DNA of 64,000 bases from Escherichia coli (GCF_013315695.1 NZ_CP054353.1), one strand, 5' to 3'; counted from the stretch's first letter, positions 6,014 through 47,740 are shown. Made by a program: numbers and translations. Notes: generated by a model not told the origin, from the letters alone.

Positions 6014-6017
6014 TGAA

Positions 6018-7445: not shown

Positions 7446-7492
7446 ATTTGCGGGAAAATGCCGGATGGCAGAGTTGCCACCCGGCTGATTTA

Positions 7493-29181: not shown

Positions 29182-29474
29182 TATAAATGTCCCATTAAAG
29201 CTGGATAAATAAATTGACGGCGGCATCGGTAATTTGAGATTCGTTATAATTAAAAACGAACACAGAAAAAATAAGTATAATTTCGGTGAATGTTTTTGAC
29301 ATGATTAAATCCCTTTACTTTATTTATTTCTGACATAATACGTTACTTCCTTTTATTATTAACGATCTGTTTCTCATTTTTCTTTAAACCTGCCTGTAAC
29401 AGAATGTTAATAAGACATGATTGTTGTGGCAGGATCTGCAATAATTAACAATTATCCACTTCACAGAGAATGCT

Positions 29475-30146
29475 ATGCAGTACCCGATTAACGAGATGTT
29501 CCAGACCCTGCAAGGTGAGGGTTACTTTACCGGCGTCCCCGCCATTTTTATTCGTTTACAGGGATGTCCGGTCGGCTGTGCCTGGTGCGACACCAAACAC
29601 ACCTGGGAAAAGCTTGAGGATCGGGAAGTCTCCCTTTTCAGCATTCTGGCGAAGACCAAAGAGAGTGATAAGTGGGGGGCGGCGAGCAGTGAAGATTTGC
29701 TGGCTGTCATTGGTCGTCAGGGATACACCGCGCGGCATGTGGTGATTACGGGTGGTGAGCCTTGCATTCATGATTTGCTGCCACTGACTGACCTGCTCGA
29801 AAAGAACGGTTTTAGCTGCCAGATAGAAACCAGCGGCACTCACGAAGTACGTTGCACACCGAATACCTGGGTTACTGTTTCGCCAAAACTGAACATGCGC
29901 GGCGGCTATGAAGTGTTGTCACAGGCACTGGAGCGCGCTAACGAAATTAAACATCCTGTTGGGCGTGTTCGTGACATCGAAGCGCTGGATGAGCTATTAG
30001 CAACGCTGACCGATGATAAACCACGAGTCATTGCACTGCAGCCGATTAGCCAAAAGGATGATGCCACTCGTTTGTGCATTGAAACCTGCATTGCGCGTAA
30101 CTGGCGTTTGTCGATGCAAACACATAAATATCTAAATATTGCCTGA
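29475..30146 (+). CDS. queE: 7-carboxy-7-deazaguanine synthase (radical SAM, queuosine biosynthesis)
   Basis: 223 aa; radical-SAM Cys motif CPVGCAWCDT; matches remembered YgcF/QueE. Confidence 0.95.
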   Translation: MQYPINEMFQTLQGEGYFTGVPAIFIRLQGCPVGCAWCDTKHTWEKLEDREVSLFSILAKTKESDKWGAASSEDLLAVIGRQGYTARHVVITGGEPCIHDLLPLTDLLEKNGFSCQIETSGTHEVRCTPNTWVTVSPKLNMRGGYEVLSQALERANEIKHPVGRVRDIEALDELLATLTDDKPRVIALQPISQKDDATRLCIETCIARNWRLSMQTHKYLNIA

Positions 30147-30485
30147 TTAAACATTTATAAGCGTTATAAATGGGTGGAACCTGTAAAGACTTCTACTCAT
30201 TTATATTGTTTGTCGCCTCTGAAAACTCATCCATCTTGCCCATCCTGAACTAATCATTATCATTCTCTACAAATTCTGTGGCGTTAATTTTTCGCTGGAG
30301 TGAAAATTATTGCGGTAAAGTTTGGTAGATTTTAGTTTGTATAGAGTTATTTTAAATATTTACCTTTTTAATCAATGGATTAAGTGCTCTTTAACATAAT
30401 GGATGTGTTGTTTGTGTGATACTGTAAAGTTGGTAGATTGTGACTGGCTTAAAAAATCATTAATTAATAATAGGTTATGTTTAGA
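30147..30485 (+). promoter_or_regulatory. CRISPR leader (A/T-rich) of distal array
   Basis: A/T-rich 340 bp ending in motif agttggtagattgt shared with the cas-adjacent leader; immediately precedes first repeat. Confidence 0.6.
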
Positions 30486-31307
30486 GTGTTCCCCGCGCCA
30501 GCGGGGATAAACCAAATACAGGACCAATATTTTGATATATATAATCGTGTTCCCCGCGCCAGCGGGGATAAACCGGTGATTCTGGCAATACTGGCACTTC
30601 CGTTTTGGTGTTCCCCGCGCCAGCGGGGATAAACCGGGCGGTTAACTGGTCCTGTGCGGATATGCGCTGTGTTCCCCGCGCCAGCGGGGATAAACCGATG
30701 TGGAAAGGCGAGCTGAGGGTGGCCTACGCGTGTTCCCCGCGCCAGCGGGGATAAACCGGCTGAGGAAATTGCTAAACCCTCGCAGGATCCGTGTTCCCCG
30801 CGCCAGCGGGGATAAACCGTTGCCGGTACAGCTCCAGCATTAATCCCCACCGTGTTCCCCGCGCCAGCGGGGATAAACCGTTGCGACGTGGTGCGCGCTC
30901 GAGCACAACGTTGTGTTCCCCGCGCCAGCGGGGATAAACCGATGTAAACCCCTCGCGCATCGAGTCAAATGTCGTGTTCCCCGCGCCAGCGGGGATAAAC
31001 CGCCACCTCAGCCTGCGCGCCCGCTGAATATTCCGTGTTCCCCGCTCCAGCGGGGATAAACCGGGACGCGTTCCATCAGGGCGGGTCCAGGGAATGTGTT
31101 CCCCGCGCCAGCGGGGATAAACCGCAGGCGGCGCAGTGGCGCATGAATCCGTTCGCGTGTTCCCCGCGCCAGCGGGGATAAACCGGAGTTTGTGAATTTA
31201 ACAGAATTCCGCGCCCGGTGTTCCCCGCGCCAGCGGGGATAAACCAGCCAATTGCCATATATGCCATCGCCAGCAGCCGTGTTCCCCGCGCCAGCGGGGA
31301 TAAACCA
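30486..31307 (+). CRISPR. Type I-E CRISPR array, 14 repeats / 13 spacers (distal array between queE and ygcE)
   Basis: 29-bp repeat GTGTTCCCCGCGCCAGCGGGGATAAACCG at exact 61-bp period from 30486 to 31279; 32-bp unique spacers; repeat 10 has GCTCC variant; repeats 1, 13, 14 end in A. Confidence 0.97.
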
Positions 31308-31394
31308 CCATATAACCCGTTATCTCTTTCTCAAGTTTTTATATTAGCTGTACTTGTAATAAGCAACATATCCACATAACACCTCATGTTCAAA

Positions 31395-31425
31395 ATAGTT
31401 CCCCATGCCAGATAAGTTCACAATT
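31395..31425 (+). repeat. Degenerate fossil CRISPR repeat
   Basis: atagttccccatgccagataag resembles repeat with internal deletion, about two periods beyond last intact repeat. Confidence 0.4.
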
Positions 31426-31760
31426 ATCGATACAAAAAATCAAATTTAATCAAAGTGTTATTTGTATAATCCTTAAACCGTTAAGAAATTTTAATATATT
31501 ATTTTTTTAATATTAATTAATGCCTGTTAATTTTTTCTTTAGAATAACAGTGTATTTTTTAAGCTTGTTATTCATTGATTAAGTAATAAATCTGGAAGTT
31601 TGTCTTTGTTTTGAGGCTAATGAGTGGTTTTACATAACCGCCTCTATACGCTGTTGATGAATAGTTCTTATGAATAAAGATATCCAGTTCATACTTTAAG
31701 TGAAAATTGATAAAGTGCGATTCGTATTGTCTTTTATTCTAAAGACATCGAGTGTAGTTA

Positions 31761-31898
31761 ATATTCCTTGTAAAAACAGGGATAAACCGAACTAGTTAAA
31801 GTTTTTATTATGTTCCCTGCATCAGCGGGGATAAACCGGACTTGTTATCATTTTTTAAGTTGTCGAACTTATGTTCCCCGCGTCAGCGGGGATAACCA
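31761..31898 (+). CRISPR. Degenerate CRISPR mini-array (3 decayed repeats)
   Basis: atattccttgtaaaaacagggataaaccg / atgttccctgcatcagcggggataaaccg / atgttccccgcgtcagcggggataacc; last two 61 bp apart; abuts ygcE 3' end. Confidence 0.7.
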
Positions 31899-31944
31899 TT
31901 CAGGTATGTTCAGGCCGGGCAGTTTCCCGCCCGGCCTTCCTCAC

Positions 31945-33423
31945 TTACGCATTCGACCAGCTCTGGATCGAATCCGCATTCCCCAATTCCCCATGCATCA
32001 CTTCATACGATTTTTTCAGTATCACATCAGTGTGTTTGGTTAGGTCTTTGAAAATGCCTTTATTCATCGCGTCGTAGCGTTTGGCGTTGCTCTCAACAGG
32101 CATAAAGATATCTTTCACGCGAACCATTTTGTCGACAGCCGTTGCGTAATCCGGATACAGACCAAGCCCTACCGCCGTATTAATCGCCGCCCCCAGACTT
32201 GCACAACCATTAATGGCGTTACGGCGTGCCGGAAGGTTGAACACGTCGGCAAAAATCTGCATAAACAGATCGCTGTTCGAACCGCCGCCAGTAATGATCA
32301 CATGCTTTGCAAAGTGATTCATTTCATTACACATATTGTCGTAATTGTTCTTCAGCGTCAGCGCCACGCTTTCCAGTATCGAACGATATATCCATGCGTA
32401 ATCCATGCTGGAATCAAAGCCGATCATAATCCCGCGTTTGTATGGTTCCCACGGATTGGTCAGCCAGTCCAGCACCGTCATCAGACCATTACAGCCAGGT
32501 GGCACACAAGACGCTTTTTTGTTGAGCAAATCTTCCGGTGAAAGATCCTGTGCTTTGGCATCCTGAATTAACGACTCGCCTAGCATGTCGCGTAGCCAGC
32601 TCACCGTCCACATGCCTTTGCGAATACCGTAACCTTCATACAGCAAGGTTTGCGGAATAGAAGACATAATCGGCCAGTACGCTACCGGATCTTTCGGCAG
32701 TGCTTTACCGTTCATCATCAGCGCGATGTAGGTGCCAAGAGAAATCACCGCCGTTTCATCATCCAGTAATCCGGCTCCCAGAGCTTCTACCGGTTTATCA
32801 CTGGTGGTACAAACAACCGGCAGCCCAGCTGGGAAATGTGTCGCCAGCGCGGCTTGAGGAGTGATATGCCCAAGAACAGTGCCCGGCATTTGCACATCAA
32901 ACAGCATATGACGGGGGATATTAAACTTCTCCATGACTGCGGCATCTTCACTCCATGCCCAGCTCTTATAATCCACCGGCCACTGACCAAAATAGTTGGC
33001 GATATTGTCTTTAAACTCGCCGGTTAAGCGATGCGTCAGATAACCCGAAAAAGAGGTGACATATGCCACGTCAGGATTCGTATGTTCGTAAGGGCGTGTA
33101 ACGCGTGCATCCTGCCAGCTAATCAACGGCGCAGCTGGCGTGCCATCGGCTTTCAATAACGCACGGCAGCAACGGATGGATCCCAGACCAATACCGACAA
33201 TATCTTCTTTATTTCCGGCAAACTGACTCATCAAATCGTGACCGGCAAAACATAATGATGCCCATAAATCGTCGTCAGGATGTTCTGCGGTATCGGCATC
33301 TGGCGTGTGCATCGGCTGCAATAAGCCTTTGCCTTCGCAAACCACATTACCTTCCAGATCATACATCACCACTTTTGTGCTCTGACTTCCGCCATCAATC
33401 CCTATGATGTATTTTTTCGACAT
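31945..33423 (-). CDS. ygcE: FGGY-family carbohydrate kinase
   Basis: 492-aa ORF with FGGY kinase N- and C-terminal motifs (IGIDGGSQSTK...). Confidence 0.9.
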   Translation of the reverse strand: MSKKYIIGIDGGSQSTKVVMYDLEGNVVCEGKGLLQPMHTPDADTAEHPDDDLWASLCFAGHDLMSQFAGNKEDIVGIGLGSIRCCRALLKADGTPAAPLISWQDARVTRPYEHTNPDVAYVTSFSGYLTHRLTGEFKDNIANYFGQWPVDYKSWAWSEDAAVMEKFNIPRHMLFDVQMPGTVLGHITPQAALATHFPAGLPVVCTTSDKPVEALGAGLLDDETAVISLGTYIALMMNGKALPKDPVAYWPIMSSIPQTLLYEGYGIRKGMWTVSWLRDMLGESLIQDAKAQDLSPEDLLNKKASCVPPGCNGLMTVLDWLTNPWEPYKRGIMIGFDSSMDYAWIYRSILESVALTLKNNYDNMCNEMNHFAKHVIITGGGSNSDLFMQIFADVFNLPARRNAINGCASLGAAINTAVGLGLYPDYATAVDKMVRVKDIFMPVESNAKRYDAMNKGIFKDLTKHTDVILKKSYEVMHGELGNADSIQSWSNA

Positions 33424-33449
33424 GATTTTTCTCCTGTAATTTTCTGGAC

Positions 33450-34727
33450 TTACTTGCTGCTAGCCATAGCAGGGGCGCTATCAGCAGTACGAATTTTTTG
33501 GAACAGCAAAAAGGTAAAGACGATCACCATGGCAAGCGCCGCCATGCCCATCAGCCACATATTGCGGTAGGCTTCTGCAGCGGGCAGGGTGTCTTGCCAG
33601 TAGCCGATAATCGGGTAAACGAAGACATCCGGCAGGAATCCAATCACCGAACAAATACCTACCGTGGTGCCCATAATGTAAGACGGTGTTCTCGCTTCGC
33701 CAGGGCAGGCCCAGTACAGCCCGCGTGAGGCGTAACAGGTGAATCCCAGCAGTAAAATCAGGCCAATCCCCATCGCGACCGATTGCGGGTTAGAGTTCGT
33801 GACGAGCAGGGCAGTTAACGCCAGCAAGCCGAGTACGGAAAGGATTTGGATCACGCGGGTAGGGGATTTCACTTTACTGTAGGTGGTGATAATGCCGCCA
33901 AGTGGACCACACAGCGCGCGGAATATTTTGTTGATCACAATCCCCATGTAGCTCGCCGCCACCAGCGACATGCCGTACATTTCGGTGAGATAGTTGGTGG
34001 AGTAACTCAGAATGGCGTAGATGGTGAAGACACCAAAAATCACCATGCTGCAATACCAGGTGGTGCTGATGCGCAAAACGGCCAGGATGTCGCTAAGCTG
34101 GAATGACTGTTTTTCTTCGTTATTGGTATTGCGCAGGTTGTTGTTATCGCTAACAAAAAACCAGCACAGAATCCCCAATAAAATGTAGACCACACTGTAG
34201 ATGATAATGACCGTTTTCAGGCTGGCGCTGTCATCCGGTGCAAAGCGAGAAAAGACCCACATGGTAAACACCGCCAGCGACATTACACCGACGCCGCGCA
34301 GCCCTTCCATCCAGCCCATAATTTTCCCTTGCTCGCTATGATCGCCCAGCAACGATGCGGCTTTAATCGACACCGACCACAGCATTAAAATCGTCGTTAT
34401 CGCAAAGGCGACCTGAATACAGAGCATTACCCACAGCGGTGGATAAGTTGCCATTAACAGACCCAGTAATCCGGTAATGATCATCGCGGAAGTAATCATT
34501 TTGCGATGTGAGAATTTATCGGCAATAACGCCACTGGGCGCATAAAGAATAATAGCTGCAATACCAAAGGTACTCATTATTAAACCTATCTCGGTATTGC
34601 TGAATCCCATAAATTTTGCTATGGGAATTTGATAAATATAACGTAAATAAGCCAGGTCGAAACTAACGCCGCCGCTAAAACTAATTATCGCGAGGGTTAT
34701 CCAACGGCGATATGAGTTGTGTTGCAT
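33450..34727 (-). CDS. yqcE: MFS transporter
   Basis: 425-aa polytopic membrane ORF; co-directional and adjacent to ygcE. Confidence 0.85.
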   Translation of the reverse strand: MQHNSYRRWITLAIISFSGGVSFDLAYLRYIYQIPIAKFMGFSNTEIGLIMSTFGIAAIILYAPSGVIADKFSHRKMITSAMIITGLLGLLMATYPPLWVMLCIQVAFAITTILMLWSVSIKAASLLGDHSEQGKIMGWMEGLRGVGVMSLAVFTMWVFSRFAPDDSASLKTVIIIYSVVYILLGILCWFFVSDNNNLRNTNNEEKQSFQLSDILAVLRISTTWYCSMVIFGVFTIYAILSYSTNYLTEMYGMSLVAASYMGIVINKIFRALCGPLGGIITTYSKVKSPTRVIQILSVLGLLALTALLVTNSNPQSVAMGIGLILLLGFTCYASRGLYWACPGEARTPSYIMGTTVGICSVIGFLPDVFVYPIIGYWQDTLPAAEAYRNMWLMGMAALAMVIVFTFLLFQKIRTADSAPAMASSK

Positions 34728-34750
34728 ATCGTATTCCCATTTGTAATAGA

Positions 34751-34797
34751 CAAAAAAAAGAGAAAAGTAAGCCGCCCTTTCAGGTGGATTACTTTTC
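34751..34797 (-). promoter_or_regulatory. Leader hairpin + U-tract 25 nt upstream of yqcE start (candidate attenuator)
   Basis: Minus-sense gaaaagtaa-N18-ttacttttc followed by cttttttttg. Confidence 0.35.
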
Positions 34798-34905
34798 TCA
34801 GGTCTCTAGTAATTGCAATAAGAAATAACATGGAAAGCAGTGGTGTTGTGTGAGAGTAGTCACGCTTCTGCTTTTTAAAATTATTTGATAATACGAATAT
34901 CACAC

Positions 34906-34921
34906 TGTGATTACGATCACA
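34906..34921. promoter_or_regulatory. CRP-type binding site in divergent yqcE/ygcW promoter region
   Basis: TGTGAttacgaTCACA, perfect match to CRP half-sites TGTGA-N6-TCACA. Confidence 0.6.
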
Positions 34922-34973
34922 TTAGCGCTTATGCCCTTATGCTAAAAATTATATCCAGTTACCAGAGATAATG

Positions 34974-35022
34974 AGAAAGGTAACTTCCCTCTCGCGGGGG
35001 AAGTTACCTTTCTTTTTTTTTT
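34974..35022 (+). terminator. Leader hairpin + T-tract 25 nt upstream of ygcW start (candidate intrinsic terminator/attenuator)
   Basis: Perfect 15-bp inverted repeat agaaaggtaacttcc-N10-ggaagttacctttct followed by T10. Confidence 0.5.
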
Positions 35023-35046
35023 GCCTTACGGAAATTGGAGCTAACT

Positions 35047-35832
35047 ATGTCAATCGAATCTCTCAATGCGTTCTCAATGGATTTTTTCTCCCTGAAAGGT
35101 AAAACAGCAATTGTTACCGGCGGGAATAGCGGTTTAGGCCAGGCATTTGCCATGGCGTTGGCCAAAGCTGGCGCAAATGTCTTTATCCCTAGCTTCGTCA
35201 AAGATAACGGCGAAACAAAGGAAATGATTGAAAAACAGGGTGTCGAAGTTGATTTTATGCAGGTGGATATCACCGCAGAAGGCGCGCCGCAGAAGATTAT
35301 CGCTGCCTGCTGTGAGCGCTTCGGTACCGTAGATATTCTGGTTAACAATGCCGGTATTTGTAAGCTGAATAAGGTGCTGGACTTCGGTCGTGCCGACTGG
35401 GACCCGATGATTGATGTGAACCTGACCGCCGCATTCGAGTTAAGCTACGAAGCGGCAAAAATTATGATCCCGCAGAAAAGCGGTAAAATTATTAATATCT
35501 GTTCATTGTTCTCTTACTTAGGTGGACAATGGTCACCTGCATATTCTGCAACTAAACATGCTCTTGCCGGATTCACCAAAGCTTATTGTGATGAACTAGG
35601 TCAATATAATATTCAGGTAAATGGTATTGCCCCTGGATATTACGCTACCGATATCACCCTGGCGACACGCAGTAATCCAGAAACCAATCAGCGCGTTCTT
35701 GATCATATTCCAGCAAACCGTTGGGGCGATACTCAGGATTTAATGGGCACAGCCATATTTCTCGCAAGTCCGGCATCGAATTATGTCAACGGACATTTAT
35801 TAGTGGTTGATGGCGGTTATTTAGTGCGCTAA
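35047..35832 (+). CDS. ygcW: Short-chain dehydrogenase/reductase (KduD/2-deoxygluconate dehydrogenase-like)
   Basis: 261 aa; Rossmann TGGNSGLG motif; catalytic YSATK. Confidence 0.9.
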   Translation: MSIESLNAFSMDFFSLKGKTAIVTGGNSGLGQAFAMALAKAGANVFIPSFVKDNGETKEMIEKQGVEVDFMQVDITAEGAPQKIIAACCERFGTVDILVNNAGICKLNKVLDFGRADWDPMIDVNLTAAFELSYEAAKIMIPQKSGKIINICSLFSYLGGQWSPAYSATKHALAGFTKAYCDELGQYNIQVNGIAPGYYATDITLATRSNPETNQRVLDHIPANRWGDTQDLMGTAIFLASPASNYVNGHLLVVDGGYLVR

Positions 35833-35901
35833 TCCATAACGGTGGTTTCTGTTTTCTCTTATTAATGATTATTCCATTTTTATTATCAGGAAGGAATTAC
35901 T

Positions 35902-37356
35902 ATGTCTTTATCTCGCGCAGCGATTGTCGACCAGCTAAAGGAAATTGTTGGTGCAGATCGCGTAATTACCGATGAAACAGTATTAAAGAAAAACAGTATT
36001 GACCGTTTTCGCAAATTTCCGGATATTCATGGCATTTATACTTTGCCTATTCCGGCAGCGGTCGTAAAACTCGGTTCCACAGAGCAAGTGTCCCGTGTGC
36101 TGAATTTTATGAATGCGCACAAAATTAACGGTGTGCCGCGTACCGGTGCTTCCGCTACCGAAGGTGGACTGGAAACCGTTGTGGAAAACTCGGTAGTGCT
36201 TGATGGCTCTGCAATGAATCAAATCATTAATATTGATATAGAGAATATGCAGGCGACGGCGCAATGTGGTGTTCCGCTGGAGGTGCTGGAAAACGCGTTG
36301 CGTGAAAAAGGTTACACCACGGGGCATTCACCGCAATCAAAACCGCTGGCGCAGATGGGCGGCCTGGTAGCAACCCGCAGTATCGGGCAGTTCTCCACAC
36401 TCTACGGCGCAATCGAAGATATGGTCGTTGGTCTGGAAGCAGTATTGGCTGATGGCACCGTAACACGTATTAAAAACGTGCCACGCCGCGCGGCTGGCCC
36501 GGACATTCGTCACATTATCATCGGCAACGAAGGTGCATTGTGCTATATCACTGAAGTAACAGTGAAAATCTTTAAGTTCACCCCGGAAAACAACCTCTTC
36601 TACGGCTATATCCTGGAAGATATGAAAACCGGCTTCAACATCCTGCGTGAAATCATGGTGGAAGGGTATCGTCCGTCGATTGCTCGTTTGTATGATGCTG
36701 AAGATGGCACCCAACACTTCACCCATTTTGCCGACGGCAAATGCGTGCTGATCTTTATGGCTGAAGGTAACCTTCGCATTGCGAAGGCGACGGGCGAAGG
36801 GATTGCTGAAATCGTGGCACGTTACCCGCAATGCCAGAGCGTGGACAGCAAGCTGATCGAAACCTGGTTTAACAACCTGAACTGGGGACCGGATAAAGTG
36901 GCTGCCGAACGTGTGCAGATCCTCAAAACCGGCAACATGGGCTTTACCACCGAAGTGTCCGGCTGCTGGAGCTGCATTCACGAAATCTACGAAAGCGTTA
37001 TTAACCGTATTCGTACCGAGTTCCCGCACGCCGACGACATCACCATGCTGGGCGGTCACTCCTCTCATAGCTATCAGAACGGCACCAACATGTACTTCGT
37101 CTACGACTACAACGTCGTTGACTGTAAGCCGGAAGAGGAAATCGACAAGTACCACAATCCGCTCAACAAAATCATCTGCGAAGAAACCATTCGCCTCGGC
37201 GGTTCGATGGTGCACCACCACGGTATTGGTAAACATCGCGTTCACTGGAGCAAACTGGAACACGGCAGCGCGTGGACGTTGCTGGAAGGGCTGAAAAAAC
37301 AGTTCGATCCTAACGGCATTATGAATACGGGTACTATCTATCCGATTGAAAAATAA
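35902..37356 (+). CDS. ygcU: FAD-linked oxidase (alkyl-DHAP synthase/D-lactate dehydrogenase-like)
   Basis: 484-aa ORF with FAD-binding PCMH-type domain features. Confidence 0.9.
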   Translation: MSLSRAAIVDQLKEIVGADRVITDETVLKKNSIDRFRKFPDIHGIYTLPIPAAVVKLGSTEQVSRVLNFMNAHKINGVPRTGASATEGGLETVVENSVVLDGSAMNQIINIDIENMQATAQCGVPLEVLENALREKGYTTGHSPQSKPLAQMGGLVATRSIGQFSTLYGAIEDMVVGLEAVLADGTVTRIKNVPRRAAGPDIRHIIIGNEGALCYITEVTVKIFKFTPENNLFYGYILEDMKTGFNILREIMVEGYRPSIARLYDAEDGTQHFTHFADGKCVLIFMAEGNLRIAKATGEGIAEIVARYPQCQSVDSKLIETWFNNLNWGPDKVAAERVQILKTGNMGFTTEVSGCWSCIHEIYESVINRIRTEFPHADDITMLGGHSSHSYQNGTNMYFVYDYNVVDCKPEEEIDKYHNPLNKIICEETIRLGGSMVHHHGIGKHRVHWSKLEHGSAWTLLEGLKKQFDPNGIMNTGTIYPIEK

Positions 37357-37449
37357 TGTGTGAGGCAGCGTTCCGCGATGACGGGGCGTTGCCTTTTCGG
37401 CTTCTCAGGCGAGAAGCCGTTCTTATTACCGGACAATGAAGGGGTAAAG

Positions 37450-38787
37450 ATGAACACTTCACCGGTGCGAATGGATGATTTACCGCTTAACCGTTTTCAC
37501 TGTCGAATTGCTGCGCTCACTTTCGGCGCGCACCTGACCGACGGTTATGTTCTCGGCGTCATTGGTTACGCCATTATTCAGCTTACGCCCGCCATGCAAC
37601 TGACGCCGTTAATGGCGGGAATGATCGGCGGCTCGGCGCTCCTTGGTTTGTTTCTTGGCAGCCTGGTTCTTGGGTGGATCTCCGACCATATTGGTCGGCA
37701 AAAAATCTTCACCTTCAGCTTTTTGCTGATTACGCTCGCTTCGCTCTTGCAATTTTTTGCCACCACGCCAGAGCATCTTATTGGATTGCGCATTTTGATC
37801 GGCATTGGTCTGGGAGGCGATTACTCAGTCGGTCACACCTTGCTGGCTGAATTTTCCCCGCGCCGCCATCGCGGTATTTTGCTGGGCGCATTCAGTGTGG
37901 TGTGGACCGTAGGCTATGTGCTGGCAAGTATTGCCGGACATCACTTTATTACCGAAAGCCCGGAGGCCTGGCGCTGGCTGCTGGCATCAGCGGCGTTACC
38001 AGCCTTGCTGATTACGCTGCTACGTTGGGGCACGCCGGAATCGCCACGCTGGCTACTGCGCCAGGGGCGTTTTGCAGAAGCTCACGCTATCGTTCATCGC
38101 TATTTTGGCCCGCATGTTTTACTGGGCGATGAAGTGGCAACGGCGACCCATAAACACATCAAAACCTTGTTCTCTTCGCGCTACTGGCGGCGCACAGCGT
38201 TTAACAGCGTCTTCTTTGTCTGCCTCGTAATCCCATGGTTTGTGATTTATACCTGGCTGCCAACTATCGCCCAGACTATTGGACTGGAAGATGCGCTGAC
38301 TGCCAGCCTGATGCTTAATGCGTTGTTAATTGTTGGCGCGCTGCTGGGATTAGTTCTGACGCACCTGCTGGCACATCGCAAGTTTTTGCTGGGAAGTTTT
38401 TTGTTGCTGGCGGCAACGCTGGTAGTGATGGCCTGTTTGCCTTCCGGCAGTTCATTAACGCTGCTGCTTTTTGTTCTCTTCAGCACCACCATTTCGGCAG
38501 TCAGTAATCTGGTGGGCATTTTGCCTGCGGAAAGTTTTCCTACTGACATTCGCTCGCTGGGCGTCGGTTTTGCCACCGCCATGAGTCGGTTGGGGGCGGC
38601 GGTAAGTACTGGCCTGCTGCCGTGGGTGCTGGCGCAGTGGGGAATGCAAGCCACCTTATTGCTCCTGGCGGCAGTGTTGTTGGTTGGTTTTGTTGTGACC
38701 TGGCTATGGGCACCAGAAACCAAAGCACTCCCGCTGGTGGCGGCGGGAAATGTAGGAGGTGCGAATGAACATTCTGTTAGCGTTTAA
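37450..38787 (+). CDS. ygcS: MFS transporter
   Basis: ORF-track call trimmed to MNTSPVRMDD (445 aa); 12-TM MFS. Confidence 0.85.
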   Translation: MNTSPVRMDDLPLNRFHCRIAALTFGAHLTDGYVLGVIGYAIIQLTPAMQLTPLMAGMIGGSALLGLFLGSLVLGWISDHIGRQKIFTFSFLLITLASLLQFFATTPEHLIGLRILIGIGLGGDYSVGHTLLAEFSPRRHRGILLGAFSVVWTVGYVLASIAGHHFITESPEAWRWLLASAALPALLITLLRWGTPESPRWLLRQGRFAEAHAIVHRYFGPHVLLGDEVATATHKHIKTLFSSRYWRRTAFNSVFFVCLVIPWFVIYTWLPTIAQTIGLEDALTASLMLNALLIVGALLGLVLTHLLAHRKFLLGSFLLLAATLVVMACLPSGSSLTLLLFVLFSTTISAVSNLVGILPAESFPTDIRSLGVGFATAMSRLGAAVSTGLLPWVLAQWGMQATLLLLAAVLLVGFVVTWLWAPETKALPLVAAGNVGGANEHSVSV

Positions 38788-39544
38788 AGCCGAACCGGAT
38801 GCCGGAATGCTGGCGGAAAAAGAGTGGCAGGCGGCGGCTCAGGGTAATATTGGACCAGATGTTTCGCTACTGCGAAGTTTACTCGGTGCTGATGAACAGG
38901 CTGCCGCCGCGCTGCTGTTGGCGCAGAGAAAAAACGGTACGTCGATGTCTTTAACCGCGTTGAGCATGGGGGATGAACGGGCGTTGCACTGGCTGCGCTA
39001 TCTCATGGCTCTTGGGTTTGAGGACGCTGTATTGCTGGAGACGGTGGCAGATCTGCGCTTTGCGCCGGAATTTGTCGCTCGCCATATTGCCGAATGGCAG
39101 CGTCAGAATCCGCTGGATCTGATAATTACCGGCTGCCAAAGCAGCGAAGGGCAGAATGGGCAAACGCCATTTTTGCTGGCGGAAATGCTGGGCTGGCCCT
39201 GCTTCACCCTGGTGGAGCGTTTTACTCTCGACGCGCCGTTTATCACCCTTGAACAGCGTACTGAACATGGGCTGCGCTGTTACCGGGTTCGCTTGCCTGC
39301 GGTGATTGCCGTGCGCCAGTGTGGTGAAGTGGCCTTGCCAGTACCGGGAATGCGCCAGCGAATGGCTGCGGGGAAAGCAGAAATTATCCGTAAAACTGTT
39401 GCTGTCGAATTGCCAGCGATGCAGTGTCTGCAACTGGCAAGAGCAGAGCAACGACGCGGAGCGACGCTGATTGATGGGCAAACGGTAGCAGAAAAAGCGC
39501 AAAAGCTATGGCAGAACTATTTACGCCAAAGGATGCAGCCATGA
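38765..39544 (+). CDS. ygcR: Electron transfer flavoprotein beta-subunit-like protein
   Basis: 259 aa from MNILLAFKAEPD; FixA/EtfB-like; overlaps ygcS end. Confidence 0.85.
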   Translation: MNILLAFKAEPDAGMLAEKEWQAAAQGNIGPDVSLLRSLLGADEQAAAALLLAQRKNGTSMSLTALSMGDERALHWLRYLMALGFEDAVLLETVADLRFAPEFVARHIAEWQRQNPLDLIITGCQSSEGQNGQTPFLLAEMLGWPCFTLVERFTLDAPFITLEQRTEHGLRCYRVRLPAVIAVRQCGEVALPVPGMRQRMAAGKAEIIRKTVAVELPAMQCLQLARAEQRRGATLIDGQTVAEKAQKLWQNYLRQRMQP

Positions 39545-40401
39545 ATATCGCAATTGTGACAATAAATCAGGAGAATGCCGCAATAGCGAGCTGGCTGGCA
39601 GAACAGGATTTCAGCGGTTGTACCCTGGCACACTGGCAGATTGAACCTCAGCCCGTAGTGGCGGAACAGGTGCTGGATGCGCTGGTGGAACAGTGGCAGC
39701 GAACGCCAGCGGACGTTGTTCTCTTTCCGCCGGGAACGTTTGGTGATGAACTGTCGACACGGCTGGCCTGGCGTTTACATGGTGCAAGCATCTGCCAGGT
39801 GACTTCGTTAGATATTTCAACCGTAAGCGTGCGCAAATCCCACTGGGGAAATGCGCTAACGGCGACGCTGCAAACAGAAAAACGCCCGCTATGCCTTTCC
39901 CTTGCCCGCCAGGCGGGAGCAGTGAAAAACGCCACATTGCCCTCTGGTATGCAGCAACTGAACATTGTCCCCGGCGCACTTCCCGACTGGCTGGTTAGCA
40001 CAGAGGATCTGAAAAATGTTACCCGTGACCCATTAGCTGAGGCCAGACGGGTGCTGGTGGTGGGGCAGGGCGGAGAGGCAGATAACCAGGAAATCGCTAT
40101 GCTGGCAGAAAAGCTGGGAGCCGAAGTGGGCTACAGTCGGGCGCGAGTAATGAACGGTGGCGTTGATGCCGAAAAAGTGATTGGTATTTCCGGACATCTG
40201 CTGGCACCTGAGGTGTGTATTGTTGTTGGCGCTTCTGGCGCAGCAGCGTTAATGGCGGGCGTATGCAATAGCAAGTTTGTGGTGGCGATTAATCATGACG
40301 CCAGCGCAGCGGTATTTTCACAGGCAGATGTTGGCGTGGTTGATGACTGGAAAGTGGTGCTGGAGGCAATGGTGACAAACATTCACGCAGATTGCCAATA
40401 A
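39541..40401 (+). CDS. ygcQ: Electron transfer flavoprotein alpha-subunit-like protein
   Basis: 286 aa from MNIAIVTINQ; FixB/EtfA-like; ATGA overlap with ygcR stop. Confidence 0.85.
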   Translation: MNIAIVTINQENAAIASWLAEQDFSGCTLAHWQIEPQPVVAEQVLDALVEQWQRTPADVVLFPPGTFGDELSTRLAWRLHGASICQVTSLDISTVSVRKSHWGNALTATLQTEKRPLCLSLARQAGAVKNATLPSGMQQLNIVPGALPDWLVSTEDLKNVTRDPLAEARRVLVVGQGGEADNQEIAMLAEKLGAEVGYSRARVMNGGVDAEKVIGISGHLLAPEVCIVVGASGAAALMAGVCNSKFVVAINHDASAAVFSQADVGVVDDWKVVLEAMVTNIHADCQ

Positions 40402-40547
40402 CGTGTTGCTGGATGATCCTGCCTACGGTTCTGGCCTGGGGACTTGTAGGCCTGATAAGACGCGTCAAGCGTCGCATCAGGCGCTGAATGTCCGATGTGG
40501 CGTACAGCCTACAAATCACACAAATTCAATTCGTTACGATTATCCCG
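40402..40547. repeat. REP element(s) between convergent ygcQ and ygcP
   Basis: gtaggcctgataagacgcgtcaagcgtcgcatcaggc REP consensus-like palindrome. Confidence 0.5.
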
Positions 40548-41123
40548 TCAAAGCAATTTTTTCGCTAGCGTCCAGACCCCGGTATTCGTGGTGGAAAGCG
40601 CCACGACACCTGCGTTAATCGCATTACGCGCATCTTCTTCATCGCACACCAGCCCGCCAGCAATCAGCGGTTGGCGGATTTTCTCCGTCACCCAGCCCAG
40701 CACTTTGGGCATACAGCCAGGCAGGATCTCAATACAATCCGGATTCGATTGCGCAACTTGCTTATCAATGTTGTGAAACGAAATCGAATCAACAATAAAC
40801 AGGCGATGAATACAGAAAAAACCTTCCGCTCTTGCTGCTTTCAGCATTGAGGCTTTGGTACTGATAATGCCGTCCGCCTCGGTCACCAGTTTCAGAAACT
40901 GAATCACCACTTCTTTGTTCGATGCGCCTTCCAGCAAATCGACATGAATAAAGGCATATTTCCCGGCACTTTTAATCTTTTTGACGATATGACTGATGGT
41001 GCAGATATTGCCGTACAACACGGAAATAAACTGGCATTCAGAGTCGATTGCCAGTTGCAGGCTGGCATTATCTTTAACGGCAGCAATCACCGGATTCTGG
41101 CGGAGCAGGTGTAAGAGGGGCAT
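40548..41123 (-). CDS. ygcP: GlpP-family (glycerol-3-phosphate-responsive antiterminator-like) protein
   Basis: 191-aa ORF matching remembered YgcP / GlpP family. Confidence 0.85.
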   Translation of the reverse strand: MPLLHLLRQNPVIAAVKDNASLQLAIDSECQFISVLYGNICTISHIVKKIKSAGKYAFIHVDLLEGASNKEVVIQFLKLVTEADGIISTKASMLKAARAEGFFCIHRLFIVDSISFHNIDKQVAQSNPDCIEILPGCMPKVLGWVTEKIRQPLIAGGLVCDEEDARNAINAGVVALSTTNTGVWTLAKKLL

Positions 41124-41139
41124 AAATTATCCTTATTAT

Positions 41140-41400
41140 TTATCCAAAACGGTAGGTGATGCCGAATCCGGAAGGCGGATAGCGCCACTGTTGTAGTGTT
41201 GATTCGTCGCACAGCAAACGGCAGGTGCCACACTCCAGGCAGCCGCGATAATCAACGCGTAAGTCACCTTCCGGTGTGAGCGAAAAAAGACCAGCCGGAC
41301 AAGCGTTAATCAACCGTTGTACCGTCTGGCGCTCAACGGAGTCAGCCGGAACAATGTGCGGCGCATCGGCAACGCGCCAGAGATTACGGGCTACAGACAT
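41140..41400 (-). CDS. ygcO: FixX-like ferredoxin
   Basis: 86 aa from MSVARNLW; Cys cluster CLECGTCRLLC; overlaps ygcN 3' end. Confidence 0.8.
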   Translation of the reverse strand: MSVARNLWRVADAPHIVPADSVERQTVQRLINACPAGLFSLTPEGDLRVDYRGCLECGTCRLLCDESTLQQWRYPPSGFGITYRFG

Positions 41401-42662
41401 CGAATACTCCTGACAACATCGCCCGCCAGATGCCACAGGCCGTGACGACGTAAATGACGCCAGAGCAACTGGCGCAGCGGCGGAACAGGTTTATCACCCT
41501 GATCCCATAAATCGCGGGAAATATCCTGCATTAACGCAGGCCACGCACGGTACCATCCAGGGCGTTGCAAAAGCGCCGGAACATGCTGATAACGTTGTAG
41601 AACATCCCATAGCAGGCTGCGCTCGACGTTGTGATGATAAAGCGCAAACAGATTTTGCGGCTCGCGGTGCTGGCAGGCGCTTATCAGCGTTTGTGCCGCC
41701 GCCTGCGCGCCAGTCAGCGCCATATCCATGCCGCGCACGGAAATTCCGGTATTGACGCAACTGCGCAACGCATCGCCCACCAGCAGCCAGCCGTTACCGG
41801 CGTATTGCACCGGCATACTGTGCAAGCCACCTTCTGGCACCAGATGCGCACCATACTCCAGTGATTCCGTGTTTTTGATAAGCGGGCGCACTGCCGGATG
41901 CGTTTTAAAGCGAGCCAGCAGCTCGCTTGCCGGAACACGACTTTGCGTAAGGGAAGAGAGCGGGCAAACAATCCCTAACGAGAGCGTTTGTTGATTAGTA
42001 TAAAGAAATGCGCCGCCGGGTAAGTCATCACAGATCCCGCCGCTGAACAGCAACGCTGCGCCTTCGTTATTCTCCAGATGAAAACGTTCTTCAATAGCGG
42101 ATGTTTCCAGCGACAGCACTTCTTTGATCCCCAACGCCATCGCTTCGCCAGCAGGACGAGTCACTAACCCGTGACGCTCAGCCAGGACGCTGTTGGCACC
42201 TTCTGCCAGCACCACATAACGGGCGCGGAGAATATCGTCACCACAAATGACACCACACACCCTGCCGTTTTCTTCATACAGCGCATCTACCGTCGCACCA
42301 GGGATGCATTCGACACCTTCTTTTTCGGCTTCGGCAACCAGCCACGGATCGAACCGTGCACGTAATACGCTCCAGGATTCACCGCCGGGCTGTAAGCTGG
42401 AAAACGTCGTTGCGCCATCCGGCGTTAGCAGAGAAAGACTTTCGTGAGTGATGCGTCGTTCAAGAGGCGCGGTCAGGTGAAACTGAGGGAGGAGTTCCGC
42501 GAGCGCCTGGGTATATAAACGCCCGCCGGAAAGGTTTTTACTGCCGGGAATTTCAGCGCGTTCCAGTAACAGAACGGATAAACCTGCCCGCGCGCAGCGT
42601 AAAGCACAAGCGGTGCCTGCTATACCGGCACCAATAATAATAATGTCGCAGTCGTCTTCCAT
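41391..42662 (-). CDS. ygcN: FixC-like flavoprotein (electron transfer flavoprotein-quinone oxidoreductase family)
   Basis: 423 aa from MEDDCDIIIIGAGIAG (FAD dinucleotide-binding motif). Confidence 0.85.
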   Translation of the reverse strand: MEDDCDIIIIGAGIAGTACALRCARAGLSVLLLERAEIPGSKNLSGGRLYTQALAELLPQFHLTAPLERRITHESLSLLTPDGATTFSSLQPGGESWSVLRARFDPWLVAEAEKEGVECIPGATVDALYEENGRVCGVICGDDILRARYVVLAEGANSVLAERHGLVTRPAGEAMALGIKEVLSLETSAIEERFHLENNEGAALLFSGGICDDLPGGAFLYTNQQTLSLGIVCPLSSLTQSRVPASELLARFKTHPAVRPLIKNTESLEYGAHLVPEGGLHSMPVQYAGNGWLLVGDALRSCVNTGISVRGMDMALTGAQAAAQTLISACQHREPQNLFALYHHNVERSLLWDVLQRYQHVPALLQRPGWYRAWPALMQDISRDLWDQGDKPVPPLRQLLWRHLRRHGLWHLAGDVVRSIRCL

Positions 42663-42739
42663 GTCATGCCCCAGATATCCAGAGCGCAACACCCTAACAT
42701 AGCGTTACTTAAGGGAAATTGACCGCCGACACACTCTTA

Positions 42740-43105
42740 TCATTCGCCGCGATAGATGCAACCTGCGGTGCAGGTTTCTTTCACCATCACCGCACTTAAC
42801 AGCGGAACAACCGGTTTAACCTGATCCCAAATCCATTTTGCTAAAACCTCGCTGGTCGGGTTTTCCAGGCCAGGAATATCATTGAGATAATAGTGATCGA
42901 GGCGATCATAGGTTGGTTTAAACGCTGCTTTCAGTTCAGCGAAATCGATAATCCAGCCCGTATGCGGATCGACTTCCCCGGTAATTTCCAGTCGCACCAT
43001 AAAGGAATGCCCGTGCAGGCGACCACATTTATGTCCTTCCGGGACGTGTGGTAAGCGGTGAGCGGCTTCGAAGGTGAAATCTTTAAATAACGTGGTGGAC
43101 ATCAT
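42740..43105 (-). CDS. queD: 6-carboxy-5,6,7,8-tetrahydropterin synthase (queuosine biosynthesis)
   Basis: 121 aa from [18 protein letters not shown]; PTPS-family His/Cys motif CGRLHGHSF. Confidence 0.9.
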
Positions 43106-43420: not shown

Positions 43421-45220
43421 ATGACGACACAGGTCTCACCTTCCGCGTTGCTTCCGTTGAACCCGGAGCAACTGGCACGCCTTCAGGCGGCCACGACCGA
43501 TTTAACTCCCACCCAGCTTGCCTGGGTTTCTGGCTATTTCTGGGGCGTGCTCAACCAGCAGCCTGCTGCGCTTGCAGCGACGCCAGCGCCCGCCGCAGAA
43601 ATGCCGGGTATAACTATTATCTCCGCCTCGCAAACCGGCAATGCGCGCCGGGTTGCTGAAGCATTACGCGATGATTTATTGGCAGCAAAACTGAACGTTA
43701 AGCTGGTGAACGCGGGCGACTATAAATTCAAACAAATCGCCAGCGAAAAACTGCTTATCGTGGTGACGTCAACGCAAGGAGAAGGGGAACCGCCGGAAGA
43801 AGCCGTCGCGCTGCATAAGTTCCTGTTCTCCAAAAAAGCGCCAAAGCTGGAAAACACCGCGTTTGCCGTGTTTAGCCTCGGCGATAGCTCTTATGAATTT
43901 TTCTGCCAGTCCGGGAAAGATTTTGACAGTAAGCTGGCGGAACTGGGCGGTGAACGCCTGCTTGACCGTGTCGATGCCGATGTTGAATATCAGGCCGCTG
44001 CCAGCGAGTGGCGCGCCCGCGTGGTTGATGCGCTTAAATCGCGTGCGCCTGTCGCGGCACCTTCGCAATCCGTCGCTACTGGCGCGGTAAATGAAATCCA
44101 CACCAGCCCGTACAGCAAAGACGCGCCGCTGGTGGCGAGCCTCTCTGTTAACCAGAAAATTACCGGGCGTAACTCTGAAAAAGACGTTCGCCATATCGAA
44201 ATTGACTTAGGTGACTCGGGCCTGCGTTACCAGCCGGGTGACGCGCTGGGTGTCTGGTATCAGAACGATCCGGCACTGGTGAAAGAACTTGTCGAACTGC
44301 TGTGGCTGAAAGGCGATGAACCTGTCACCGTCGAGGGCAAAACGTTGCCTCTGAACGAAGCGCTACAGTGGCACTTCGAACTGACCGTCAACACCGCCAA
44401 CATTGTTGAGAACTATGCCACGCTTACCCGCAGCGAAACGCTGCTGCCGCTGGTGGGCGATAAAGCGAAGTTACAGCATTACGCCGCGACCACGCCGATT
44501 GTCGACATGGTGCGTTTCTCTCCGGCGCAACTGGATGCCGAAGCGCTGATTAATCTGCTGCGCCCGCTGACCCCGCGCCTGTATTCCATCGCCTCCTCGC
44601 AGGCGGAAGTCGAGAACGAAGTACACGTCACCGTTGGCGTGGTGCGTTACGACGTGGAAGGCCGCGCCCGTGCCGGTGGTGCCTCCAGCTTCCTCGCGGA
44701 CCGCGTGGAAGAAGAGGGCGAAGTCCGCGTATTTATCGAACATAACGACAACTTCCGCCTGCCAGCCAACCCAGAAACCCCGGTGATTATGATTGGCCCA
44801 GGCACCGGCATCGCGCCGTTTCGCGCCTTTATGCAGCAGCGCGCCGCTGACGAAGCGCCGGGTAAAAACTGGTTGTTCTTTGGCAACCCGCACTTTACGG
44901 AAGATTTCCTCTACCAGGTGGAGTGGCAGCGCTACGTCAAAGAGGGCGTGCTGACGCGTATCGATCTTGCCTGGTCGCGCGACCAAAAAGAAAAAGTTTA
45001 TGTACAAGACAAACTGCGCGAACAGGGCGCAGAGCTGTGGCGCTGGATCAATGACGGTGCCCACATTTATGTCTGCGGCGACGCTAATCGCATGGCGAAA
45101 GACGTTGAACAGGCACTTCTGGAAGTGATTGCCGAATTTGGTGGCATGGACACCGAAGCGGCGGATGAATTTTTAAGTGAGCTGCGCGTAGAGCGCCGTT
45201 ATCAGCGAGATGTCTACTAA
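43421..45220 (+). CDS. cysJ: Sulfite reductase [NADPH] flavoprotein alpha component
   Basis: 599 aa; flavodoxin-like and FAD/NADPH-binding domains. Confidence 0.95.
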
Positions 45221-46932
45221 TGAGCGAAAAACATCCAGGGCCTTTAGTGGTCGAAGGAAAACTGACAGACGCCGAGCGCATGAAGCTTGAAAGCAACTAC
45301 CTGCGCGGCACCATTGCGGAAGATTTAAACGACGGTCTGACCGGCGGCTTTAAGGGCGACAACTTCCTGCTGATCCGCTTCCACGGCATGTATCAGCAGG
45401 ATGACCGCGACATCCGCGCCGAACGTGCTGAACAGAAGCTGGAGCCGCGCCACGCGATGCTGTTGCGCTGTCGTCTGCCGGGTGGGGTGATTACCACCAA
45501 ACAGTGGCAGGCGATCGATAAATTTGCCGGTGAAAACACCATCTATGGCAGCATTCGCCTGACCAACCGCCAGACGTTTCAGTTCCACGGCATTCTGAAA
45601 AAGAACGTCAAACCGGTGCACCAGATGCTGCACTCGGTCGGTCTTGATGCGCTGGCGACTGCTAACGACATGAACCGTAACGTACTCTGCACCTCGAACC
45701 CTTACGAGTCGCAGCTGCACGCGGAAGCCTATGAATGGGCTAAGAAAATATCTGAACATCTGCTGCCGCGTACCCGCGCGTATGCGGAGATCTGGCTCGA
45801 TCAGGAAAAAGTCGCCACCACCGATGAAGAACCGATCCTCGGTCAGACTTATTTGCCGCGTAAGTTCAAAACCACGGTAGTGATCCCGCCGCAGAACGAT
45901 ATCGATCTGCACGCCAACGACATGAACTTCGTGGCGATCGCCGAAAACGGCAAGCTGGTGGGCTTTAACCTGCTGGTGGGCGGTGGGCTTTCCATCGAGC
46001 ACGGCAACAAGAAAACCTACGCCCGCACGGCGAGTGAGTTTGGTTATCTGCCGCTGGAGCATACGCTGGCGGTGGCAGAAGCCGTCGTGACGACTCAGCG
46101 CGACTGGGGTAACCGAACCGATCGTAAAAATGCCAAAACCAAATACACGCTGGAGCGCGTGGGGGTTGAGACGTTTAAAGCGGAAGTGGAGCGTCGCGCG
46201 GGGATCAAATTTGAACCGATCCGTCCGTATGAGTTCACCGGACGCGGCGATCGTATTGGTTGGGTTAAGGGCATTGATGATAACTGGCACCTGACGCTAT
46301 TTATCGAAAATGGTCGCATCCTTGATTATCCGGGGCGTCCGCTGAAAACTGGCCTGCTGGAGATCGCGAAGATCCACAAAGGTGATTTCCGCATTACGGC
46401 GAACCAGAATCTGATCATCGCCGGTGTGCCGGAAAGCGAGAAAGCGAAGATCGAGAAGATCGCCAAAGAGAGCGGGTTAATGAATGCCGTCACGCCGCAG
46501 CGTGAAAACTCAATGGCCTGCGTGTCATTCCCGACTTGCCCGCTGGCGATGGCGGAAGCGGAGCGTTTCCTGCCGTCTTTTATCGACAACATCGATAATT
46601 TAATGGCGAAACATGGTGTCAGCGATGAGCATATCGTGATGCGTGTAACAGGCTGCCCGAACGGTTGTGGTCGCGCGATGCTGGCGGAAGTGGGCCTGGT
46701 GGGGAAAGCGCCGGGTCGCTACAACCTGCATCTTGGCGGCAACCGCATTGGGACACGTATCCCACGGATGTATAAAGAAAACATCACCGAGCCGGAAATC
46801 CTGGCGTCGCTTGATGAACTGATAGGGCGCTGGGCGAAAGAGCGCGAAGCGGGTGAAGGCTTCGGCGACTTTACGGTGCGTGCGGGCATCATTCGCCCGG
46901 TGCTCGATCCGGCGCGCGATTTGTGGGATTAA
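45220..46932 (+). CDS. cysI: Sulfite reductase [NADPH] hemoprotein beta component
   Basis: 570 aa; siroheme/Fe-S Cys motifs ([19 protein letters not shown]); start overlaps cysJ stop. Confidence 0.95.
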
Positions 46933-46996
46933 CCATCAGCCCGGTCTTGTAGGCCTGATAAGACGCGTGAGCGTCGCATCAGGCAAGGCAAACAGT
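46933..46996. repeat. REP element between cysI and cysH
   Basis: gtaggcctgataagacgcgtgagcgtcgcatcaggc. Confidence 0.5.
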
Positions 46997-47005
46997 GAGG
47001 AACTT

Positions 47006-47740
47006 ATGTCCAAACTCGATCTAAACGCCCTGAACGAACTGCCAAAGGTAGACCGGATTCTGGCGCTGGCGGAAACTAACGCCCAACTGGAAAAACTGGA
47101 CGCTGAAGGCCGCGTAGCCTGGGCGCTGGATAATCTGCCCGGTGAATATGTACTTTCTTCCAGCTTTGGCATTCAGGCGGCGGTGAGCCTGCATCTGGTG
47201 AATCAGATTCACCCGGATATTCCAGTGATCCTCACCGATACCGGTTATCTGTTCCCGGAAACCTACCGCTTTATTGACGAGTTAACGGACAAACTCAAAC
47301 TCAACCTGAAAGTGTACCGTGCTACCGAAAGCGCTGCCTGGCAGGAAGCGCGCTACGGCAAACTGTGGGAACAGGGCGTTGAAGGTATTGAAAAGTACAA
47401 CGATATCAACAAAGTCGAACCGATGAACCGGGCGCTAAAAGAACTGAACGCGCAAACCTGGTTTGCCGGCCTGCGCCGTGAACAATCCGGCAGTCGTGCC
47501 AATTTACCGGTGCTGGCAATTCAGCGTGGCGTATTTAAAGTGCTGCCGATTATCGACTGGGATAACCGAACTATTTATCAGTACCTGCAAAAACATGGCC
47601 TGAAATATCACCCATTATGGGATGAAGGATATTTATCGGTCGGTGATACCCATACAACCCGTAAATGGGAACCCGGCATGGCGGAAGAAGAAACGCGTTT
47701 CTTTGGCTTAAAAAGAGAATGTGGGTTACACGAAGGGTAA
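47006..47740 (+). CDS. cysH: Phosphoadenosine phosphosulfate (PAPS) reductase
   Basis: 244 aa from [11 protein letters not shown]; C-terminal ECGLH motif; ORF-track call has 51-codon upstream extension. Confidence 0.9.

Follow-up and report, generated by a model that had tools for sequence, protein, structure and literature searches.

In a 64,000-nucleotide stretch of Escherichia coli DNA (GCF_013315695.1, NZ_CP054353.1; the whole stretch is called the window below), the queuosine genes queE and queD are separated by a CRISPR array and the ygc gene island. Very probably the array and the island, which is nearly universal in E. coli, are old insertions at the spacer between convergent queE and queD genes, and the island has since descended mostly vertically. 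Gene order and array position at this locus are already published, and the value added here is a cleaner evolutionary reading of them. The order queE-CRISPR-ygc-queD would be a derived state of nested insertions, and as such it is not evidence of a functional link among queuosine synthesis, CRISPR and ygc. The locus may serve as a clean example of how a spacer between convergent genes can house cargo over a long time throughout a bacterial family.

The queE-queD junction in Enterobacterales

The initial annotation placed queE and queD on opposite strands, bracketing an array, decayed repeats and the ygc cluster. Profile searches and RefSeq annotation confirmed the coordinates, strands and bracketing. 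The two anchors and their immediate flanks are as follows.

29475..30146, plus strand: queE (ygcF), 7-carboxy-7-deazaguanine synthase, left anchor (TIGR04322, RefSeq, CxxxCxxC motif)
30157..30212, plus strand: hairpin with an AU-rich stem, directly 3' of the queE stop codon (fold of 30140-30240)
42740..43105, minus strand: queD (ygcM), 6-carboxytetrahydropterin synthase, right anchor (TIGR03367, CGRLHGH motif, RefSeq)
43421..47740, plus strand: cysJIH, conserved core flank next to queD in every species examined (RefSeq, species loci)

Both anchors are genuine genes, and they converge with a stop-to-stop distance of 12,593 bp (30147-42739). QueE (223 amino acids) scores 368.3 bits on TIGR04322 "rSAM_QueE_Ecoli" (cut-off 200) and has the radical-SAM 4Fe-4S cysteine motif CxxxCxxC as C31PVGC35AWC38; PF04055 is found on its homologues. 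QueD (121 amino acids) scores 111.6 bits on TIGR03367 (cut-off 89.25) and carries the QueD/PTPS-I signature CxxxHGH as C27GRLH31GH33, which sets QueD apart from other PTPS subfamilies (PMC5041015). RefSeq gives the gene order ygcG, queE, CRISPR, ygcE, yqcE, ygcW, ygcU, ygcS, ygcR, ygcQ, ygcP, ygcO, ygcN, queD, cysJIH, hok, cas3, casA; because this is annotated gene order, chance is not an issue for the observation. The arrangement is the classical one of strain K-12, whose locus was also retrieved. E. coli MSB1_4I (NZ_LR898874.1) shows 100% identity to the window, starting at about 26.85 kb and continuing to at least 52 kb, where the retrieved locus stops. An Rfam scan of the whole window at gathering thresholds returned nothing between 29 and 43.5 kb. 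The region just behind queE (30140-30240) folds with -22.9 kcal/mol (z = -3.1; 0 of 200 shuffles equal it), and related species have a GC-rich hairpin at the equivalent position.

Eighty species-representative queE neighbourhoods from Enterobacteriaceae were retrieved and E. coli proteins were mapped onto them. The backbone pyrG-eno-[variable]-queE> <queD-cysJIH is constant across these species loci. Of the 76 loci that were informative, a tail-to-tail queE/queD pair at 28-184 bp is found in 40, the ygc island in 17 and some other cargo in 19; the short spacers of the adjacent pairs contain only a GC-rich hairpin. Yersinia ruckeri (Yersiniaceae), Dickeya solani (Pectobacteriaceae) and genome AP025685, used as outgroups, have the same adjacent, convergent pair. 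Fitch parsimony on a neighbour-joining species tree of pyrG, eno and queE, three very conserved genes, places "ygc absent" at the root and counts at least 10 state changes. Synteny thus upholds one of the two possibilities raised in the initial annotation, namely that DNA was inserted between ancestrally paired queE and queD.

The other possibility was rearrangement within an ancestral que locus, for example an inversion or translocation that split a former queD-queE operon. The opposite strands of the two genes and an IS4-associated inversion junction nearby in the window would fit such an event. However, the junction lies left of ygcG, outside the queE-queD interval; the flanks from eno to queE and from queD to cysJIH are conserved in every species, and the genes are convergent also where they are adjacent. 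With both flanks unchanged in all loci, rearrangement was rejected, and we give it next to no credence. Every enterobacterial locus examined has queE and queD convergent and so differs from a que operon of the queCDEF type. Since the ancestral enterobacterial pair was itself convergent, the two genes appear never to have been co-transcribed in Enterobacterales, and no que operon would have been split.

As a tendency, the remark in the initial annotation that bacterial queD and queE genes usually adjoin is acceptable. QueD physically clusters with other genes of the queuosine pathway (PMC5041015), and two of three distant QueE homologues sampled (48-58% identical) belong to queD-queE operons. 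One of these lies directly after queD, a second is in a phage-like queC-folE-queD-queE cluster, and the third adjoins queC, with no queD within 6 kb. The phage-like cluster (3994-6388 of a Tara Oceans scaffold that also has lysozyme and ParB-like genes) is co-directional, and its QueE is 48% identical to that of E. coli. The enterobacterial loci retrieved lack queC, which in E. coli K-12 has another chromosomal location. The queCDEF (ykvJKLM) operon of Bacillus subtilis (Reader et al., 2004, as cited in PMC5041015) resembles the present locus in having genes of the same pathway close together, and the two distant homologues directly after queD are of this kind; unlike it, the Enterobacterales pair is convergent and does not form an operon.

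Ancestral Enterobacterales would thus have had queE and queD tail-to-tail between eno and cysJIH, with a short hairpin spacer. DNA entering this spacer would cut through neither a promoter nor an operon, and conservation of the flanks is high, so the spacer may be a permissive spot for the gain, swap and loss of cargo. Because each gene retains its own upstream region, the function of queE and queD should be unaffected. Homologous recombination in the flanks is the likely route of cargo exchange, in keeping with published work on transfer hotspots (PMC5635113).

CRISPR array, ygc island and other cargoes

The first filling of the spacer would be a type I-E satellite array with its leader, placed directly behind queE and reading away from it. 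The region between queE and ygcE contains the following elements.

30147..30485, plus strand: AT-rich CRISPR leader, GC 0.30 (composition; alignment of the last ~80 nt)
30486..31307, plus strand: type I-E CRISPR array of 14 repeats and 13 spacers (repeat family D1, RefSeq direct_repeat feature)
31308..31760, no strand: AT-rich non-coding DNA, ~0.45 kb, separating the two groups of repeats (GC 0.33 for 31308-31944)
31761..31899, plus strand: three degenerate repeats, a decayed small array adjoining ygcE (families D1/D2 and D1/D4 in two repeat searches)

The array repeat, GTGTTCCCCGCGCCAGCGGGGATAAACCG, is present in 14 copies of 29 nt with a 61-nt period; it is partially palindromic and of the E. 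coli type. Repeat type and spacing, the AT-rich upstream leader and the matching cas genes (cas3 and casA, annotated from 48352 onward) all agree with a type I-E array. CRISPR-II of E. coli is positioned between ygcE and ygcF (Almendros et al., 2014, mBio, PMC3903273; the locus is also described in PMC2886076), and 30486-31307 appears to be its leader-adjacent array. The likeness to CRISPR2.2/2.3 (PMC3903273) extends to type 2 (I-E) repeats of 29 nt, a leader by the main array and a degenerate second array about 0.5 kb off; there is no structural difference, just strain-specific spacer content and repeat number. E. coli CRISPR2 contains a "~0.5 kb conserved non-coding sequence" (PMC2886076, PMC3903273), which the stretch at 31308-31760 fits.

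In Escherichia and Salmonella alike, CRISPR2 is bounded by the core genes cysJ and ygcF and is a satellite of the cas-adjacent CRISPR1, and the genes between cysJ and ygcF have already been treated as non-core across both genera (Touchon and Rocha, 2010, PMC2886076). For one Salmonella genome, this placement of the array with respect to core genes was confirmed here. Beyond that study, position and orientation are extended to Phytobacter, Pseudocitrobacter and one Enterobacteriaceae metagenome-assembled genome (MAG), and the array is separated from the ygc island as an independent insertion.

The initial annotation treated CRISPR and ygc as one block, but each occurs behind queE without the other. 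In Salmonella enterica, queE is followed by 18 type I-E repeats, a gene of the MBL-fold family and queD. Phytobacter ursingii, P. massiliensis, a Pseudocitrobacter MAG and MAG UBA3516 also have CRISPR behind queE in the same orientation and lack ygc. The last ~80 nt of the E. coli leader align with the leaders of the queE-adjacent arrays in Salmonella, Phytobacter, Pseudocitrobacter and UBA3516. Conversely, the queE-ygcE spacer is merely 39-110 bp in ygc carriers other than Escherichia. E. albertii and E. whittamii have decayed repeats only. Carriers of ygc comprise 17 species in at least eight genera, including some Citrobacter, Klebsiella, Raoultella and Cedecea. In Citrobacter the island takes up all the room between the two genes, leaving 39 bp on the queE side and 80 bp on the queD side (the queD-ygcN distance in E. 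coli is 77 bp). Array and island thus appear to be two independent fillings.

The 19 loci with other content carry eight cargo types at the queE-queD spot.

Histidine acid phosphatase (Kluyvera group)
MFS transporter with M20 peptidase and AraC-type regulator (Enterobacter cloacae group)
Lone short-chain dehydrogenase/reductase (SDR)
Alpha/beta hydrolase
DAO-type oxidoreductase
GPH transporter with arabinofuranosidase
Stv-like protein
CRISPR alone

An 8-kb insert of unrelated content lies between queE and queD in Erwinia sp. E602. No integrase was found alongside the cargoes of other species within the portions of the loci seen. The lone SDR of K. oxytoca and Kosakonia pseudosacchari is 75-76% identical to YgcW and was considered as a ygc remnant; the leader hairpin of ygcW is missing upstream, and the gene was counted as a separate cargo. 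In Pluralibacter sp. UBA7423 (1655-8596), a 6.9-kb low-GC (0.44) block of unannotated open reading frames is nested between queE and ygcE, at the position of CRISPR in Escherichia. Another variable spot is the interval between eno and queE (28309-29474 in the window), whose length differs among species, from 124 bp to 5.2 kb; it holds ygcG, which is largely Escherichia-specific, and in Klebsiella spallanzanii a 22-repeat type I-E array.

Transferred genes concentrate in few intervals between core genes, and mobility genes are missing from many of these hotspots (Oliveira, Touchon and Rocha, 2017, PMC5635113). The queE-queD interval is similar in being bounded by core genes and in holding many unrelated gene sets in different genomes. 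Unlike those hotspots, which are defined within species (PMC5635113), its diversity is confined to comparisons between species or genera: about 85 loci hold at least 10 cargo types, whereas 93% of E. coli genomes have the same island. The interval is not mentioned in the E. coli defence-island survey.

CRISPR arrays have been suggested to outlive cas genes and to serve as integration hotspots (Touchon and Rocha, PMC2886076). The tail-to-tail junction might be a family-wide, integrase-independent exchange point that anchors a satellite array, and the array and leader may recruit or retain cargo such as ygc. In a related variant, the island captured queD read-through, tying ygcNOP expression to queD. 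We regard this extension as distinctly doubtful. A functional neighbourhood, in which CRISPR or ygc or both are kept by queE and queD through a coupling of 7-deazaguanine chemistry to defence or to the island pathway (for instance by queD-ygcNOP read-through), is highly improbable. The 77-bp gap between queD and ygcN, which are on the same strand, has a fold that is not terminator-like (z = -0.19), and the similar spacing in Citrobacter would agree with read-through. Some QueC-family proteins have known defence roles (PMC13329287), and the phage-like contig carries queC-folE-queD-queE. However, neither CRISPR nor ygc accompanies queE and queD in most species, each of the two occurs there alone, and unrelated cargoes use the same spot.

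Age and descent of the ygc island

The second filling, the ygc island, would have entered the spot once, early in Enterobacteriaceae, and would have been inherited mostly vertically since, being lost many times and probably exchanged between genera at least once. Of 5426 complete E. coli genomes, 5060 (93%) carry at least 80% of the island, a frequency under the usual 95-99% core threshold and well over typical accessory frequency. One deletion allele is shared by 276 E. coli genomes (~5%), with almost all of ygc gone and 456 bp of ygcE left next to queD. In NZ_AP022482.1 (4001-4957), for example, this deletion has brought queD to about 2.3 kb from queE. Loss of the island by deletion is thus real, but it leaves a scar.

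Composition and divergence of the island are core-like. GC content is 0.510 for the island and 0.511 for the window. Correlation of relative synonymous codon usage with other window genes is 0.96 for ygc and 0.86 for cas, and the per-gene median of ygc equals the background. Between the window and K-12, nucleotide identity is 95.4-97.3% for ygc genes and 95.1-97.4% for the flanks queE, cysJIH and relA, and ygc proteins are 94-99% identical. Divergence like that of the flanks, together with these protein identities, indicates that ygc and its flanks were inherited together and that purifying selection acts on the island. YgcE, YgcU, YgcW and YgcP of E. coli are 89-97% identical to their Citrobacter counterparts, compared with 89-92% for CysJ. 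Distances from ygcE, yqcE, ygcW, ygcU, ygcS and ygcP in 14 ygc-carrying genomes correlate with core distances (Pearson/Mantel r = 0.81; 0 of 2000 permutations reach it). The ratio of ygc to core distance is 0.83-3.84 (median 1.9), and no pair among these 14 genomes appears recently transferred. Because ygc divergence tracks core divergence, the insertion appears to be old and not recent.

The initial annotation described the intervening block as accessory. This holds across the family, where 17 of 76 species carry ygc, and fails within E. coli by the annotation's own refuting conditions of core-like composition and universal presence, given the 93% presence and the core-like GC content, codon usage and divergence. 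Within E. coli the island would behave as near-core DNA. The region 30.1-43.2 kb contains no tRNA, no integrase or transposase gene, and no direct or inverted repeats at its boundaries. With no integrase, tRNA or flanking repeats, and with GC content and codon usage not deviant, an integrase-borne mobile genomic island was rejected as a description.

That annotation also implied that ygc is a recently and repeatedly transferred accessory island, gained independently by Escherichia and other genera. Its patchy distribution, with at least 10 state changes on the tree, would suit such a history, as would the many unrelated cargoes at the same spot. The ygc islands of Citrobacter youngae and Klebsiella spallanzanii group together against the core tree, which suggests a probable exchange of the island between genera. 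Recent transfer nevertheless seems very unlikely, since no genus pair has ygc much closer than core (minimum ratio 0.83; Mantel r = 0.81), GC content and codon usage are host-like, mobility genes are missing, and the island diverges like its flanks in a species where 93% of genomes carry it.

Alternatively, ygc between queE and queD could be ancestral in Enterobacteriaceae or deeper, with adjacency derived by repeated deletion. Scaling of ygc divergence with core divergence and the same island boundaries in E. coli and Citrobacter would suit this scenario; closely related species pairs differ in ygc state, and the deletion joining truncated ygcE to queD in 276 E. coli genomes demonstrates that the event happens. 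On the other hand, the Yersiniaceae and Pectobacteriaceae outgroups are adjacent, and parsimony places absence at the root. The 40 adjacent spacers (28-184 bp) hold the hairpin only and no ygc scars, although the documented deletion does scar. We consider ancestral presence unlikely, but less so than recent transfer.

Several points weigh against old insertion followed by mostly vertical descent. The 80 loci were picked by similarity of QueE to that of E. coli and form an unbalanced sample, to which Salmonella was added by hand. The 10-kb flank made the queD end of the island visible only in E. coli and Citrobacter. The gain and loss count and the "absent" root are rough, given a three-gene neighbour-joining tree. 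No ygc scars or remnants were found in "empty" queE-queD sites, a slight difficulty for repeated deletion if empty alleles are not themselves exchanged. A single ancient gain with many clean losses is also indistinguishable from several flank-mediated inter-genus transfers, and C. youngae and K. spallanzanii show that transfer occurs. We nevertheless infer a single ancient gain of the island as part of the insertion history favoured here. As a side product, the island is dated as old and under purifying selection, which makes it a reasonable target for functional work.

Content of the ygc island and neighbouring observations

The ten-gene island ygcE-ygcN occupies 31945-42662 (10.7 kb) and adjoins queD. 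Its genes and the leader hairpin of ygcW are listed below.

31945..33423, minus strand: ygcE, FGGY-family carbohydrate kinase, left island end, convergent with queE (RefSeq; best NCBIfam models XylB and AI-2 kinase, both below cut-off)
33450..34727, minus strand: yqcE, MFS transporter (RefSeq, NCBIfam)
34973..35024, plus strand: terminator-like hairpin and T run, candidate antitermination target, 23 nt upstream of the ygcW start codon (35047)
35047..35832, plus strand: ygcW, KduD-like short-chain dehydrogenase (RefSeq; NF005390, 348.6 bits, slightly below the cut-off of 369)
35902..37356, plus strand: ygcU, GlcD-like FAD-binding oxidase (RefSeq, NCBIfam)
37378..38787, plus strand: ygcS, MFS transporter (RefSeq, NCBIfam)
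38765..40401, plus strand: ygcR and ygcQ, FixA/FixB-like electron-transfer flavoprotein (ETF) beta and alpha subunits (RefSeq, NCBIfam)
40548..41123, minus strand: ygcP, GlpP-family (glycerol-3-phosphate-responsive) antiterminator (RefSeq product; PF04309 G3P_antiterm on the Citrobacter orthologue)
41140..42662, minus strand: ygcO and ygcN, FixX-like ferredoxin and FixC-like FAD oxidoreductase, right island end (RefSeq, NCBIfam)

By the look of its genes the island would be self-contained: it encodes a kinase, a pair of transporters, two enzymes of the dehydrogenase or oxidase kind and an electron-transfer module of ETF/Fix type, and it has a GlpP-type antiterminator of its own together with a conserved leader terminator. 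This content resembles sugar catabolism, and the island may have a catabolic role. YgcR, YgcQ, YgcN and YgcO match the ETF-beta, ETF-alpha/FixB, FixC and FixX models, respectively, and in the NCBIfam search none of the ygc proteins reached a curated equivalog cut-off. No function for ygc genes was found in the literature searched, where mentions are restricted to promoter, CRP-site and screening papers. E. coli has the electron-transfer-flavoprotein clusters fixABCX and ydiQRST, and in B. subtilis GlpP acts by antitermination on the glp genes. The ygc island is similar to these systems in its ETF-, FixC- and FixX-like proteins, in YgcP with PF04309, and in the conserved terminator hairpin of the ygcW leader; it differs in that its proteins are all below equivalog level.

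The ETF/Fix-like module (38765-40401 and 41140-42662) diverges much faster than the remaining island genes. Identity to Citrobacter is 57-62% for YgcQ and 71-72% for YgcR, compared with 92-97% for YgcW and 95-96% for YgcP. The lowest island protein identities to K-12 are those of YgcR (95.0%) and YgcO (94.3%).

The ygcW leader hairpin has a 19-pair stem with perfect 16-nt arms, followed by a T run. It is kept in all 15 ygc-carrying species loci examined (at least eight genera), with two compensatory pairs. Because this conserved leader terminator and a GlpP-family ygcP occur in the same island, antitermination control of ygcWUSRQ by YgcP is suggested.

Other features of the window lie outside the queE-queD interval. 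An IS4 element is at 26917-28263, and leftward of it (~1-26850) are clpB, an rRNA operon, rluD and bamD instead of eno and pyrG. In the otherwise identical strain MSB1_4I this left-hand DNA is about 186 kb away, beside another IS4 and in the opposite orientation, indicating that, compared with MSB1_4I, the source genome carries an IS4-IS4 inversion. The IS4 junction is shared with strain TW10690 (NZ_CP127034.1). In the annotation of this strain, the small gene between ygcG and queE (29195-29336; yqcG in K-12) is a pseudogene with a frameshift. In the window, a hok/sok-type toxin-antitoxin pair (47863-48157; Rfam sok, 111 bits; Hok/Gef coding sequence) lies between cysH and cas3. The cas3 gene (48352-51051) has about 58% nucleotide identity to K-12 cas3, whereas flanking core genes have about 97%, indicating that the strain carries the other of the published cas-E variants of E. 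coli (PMC3903273).

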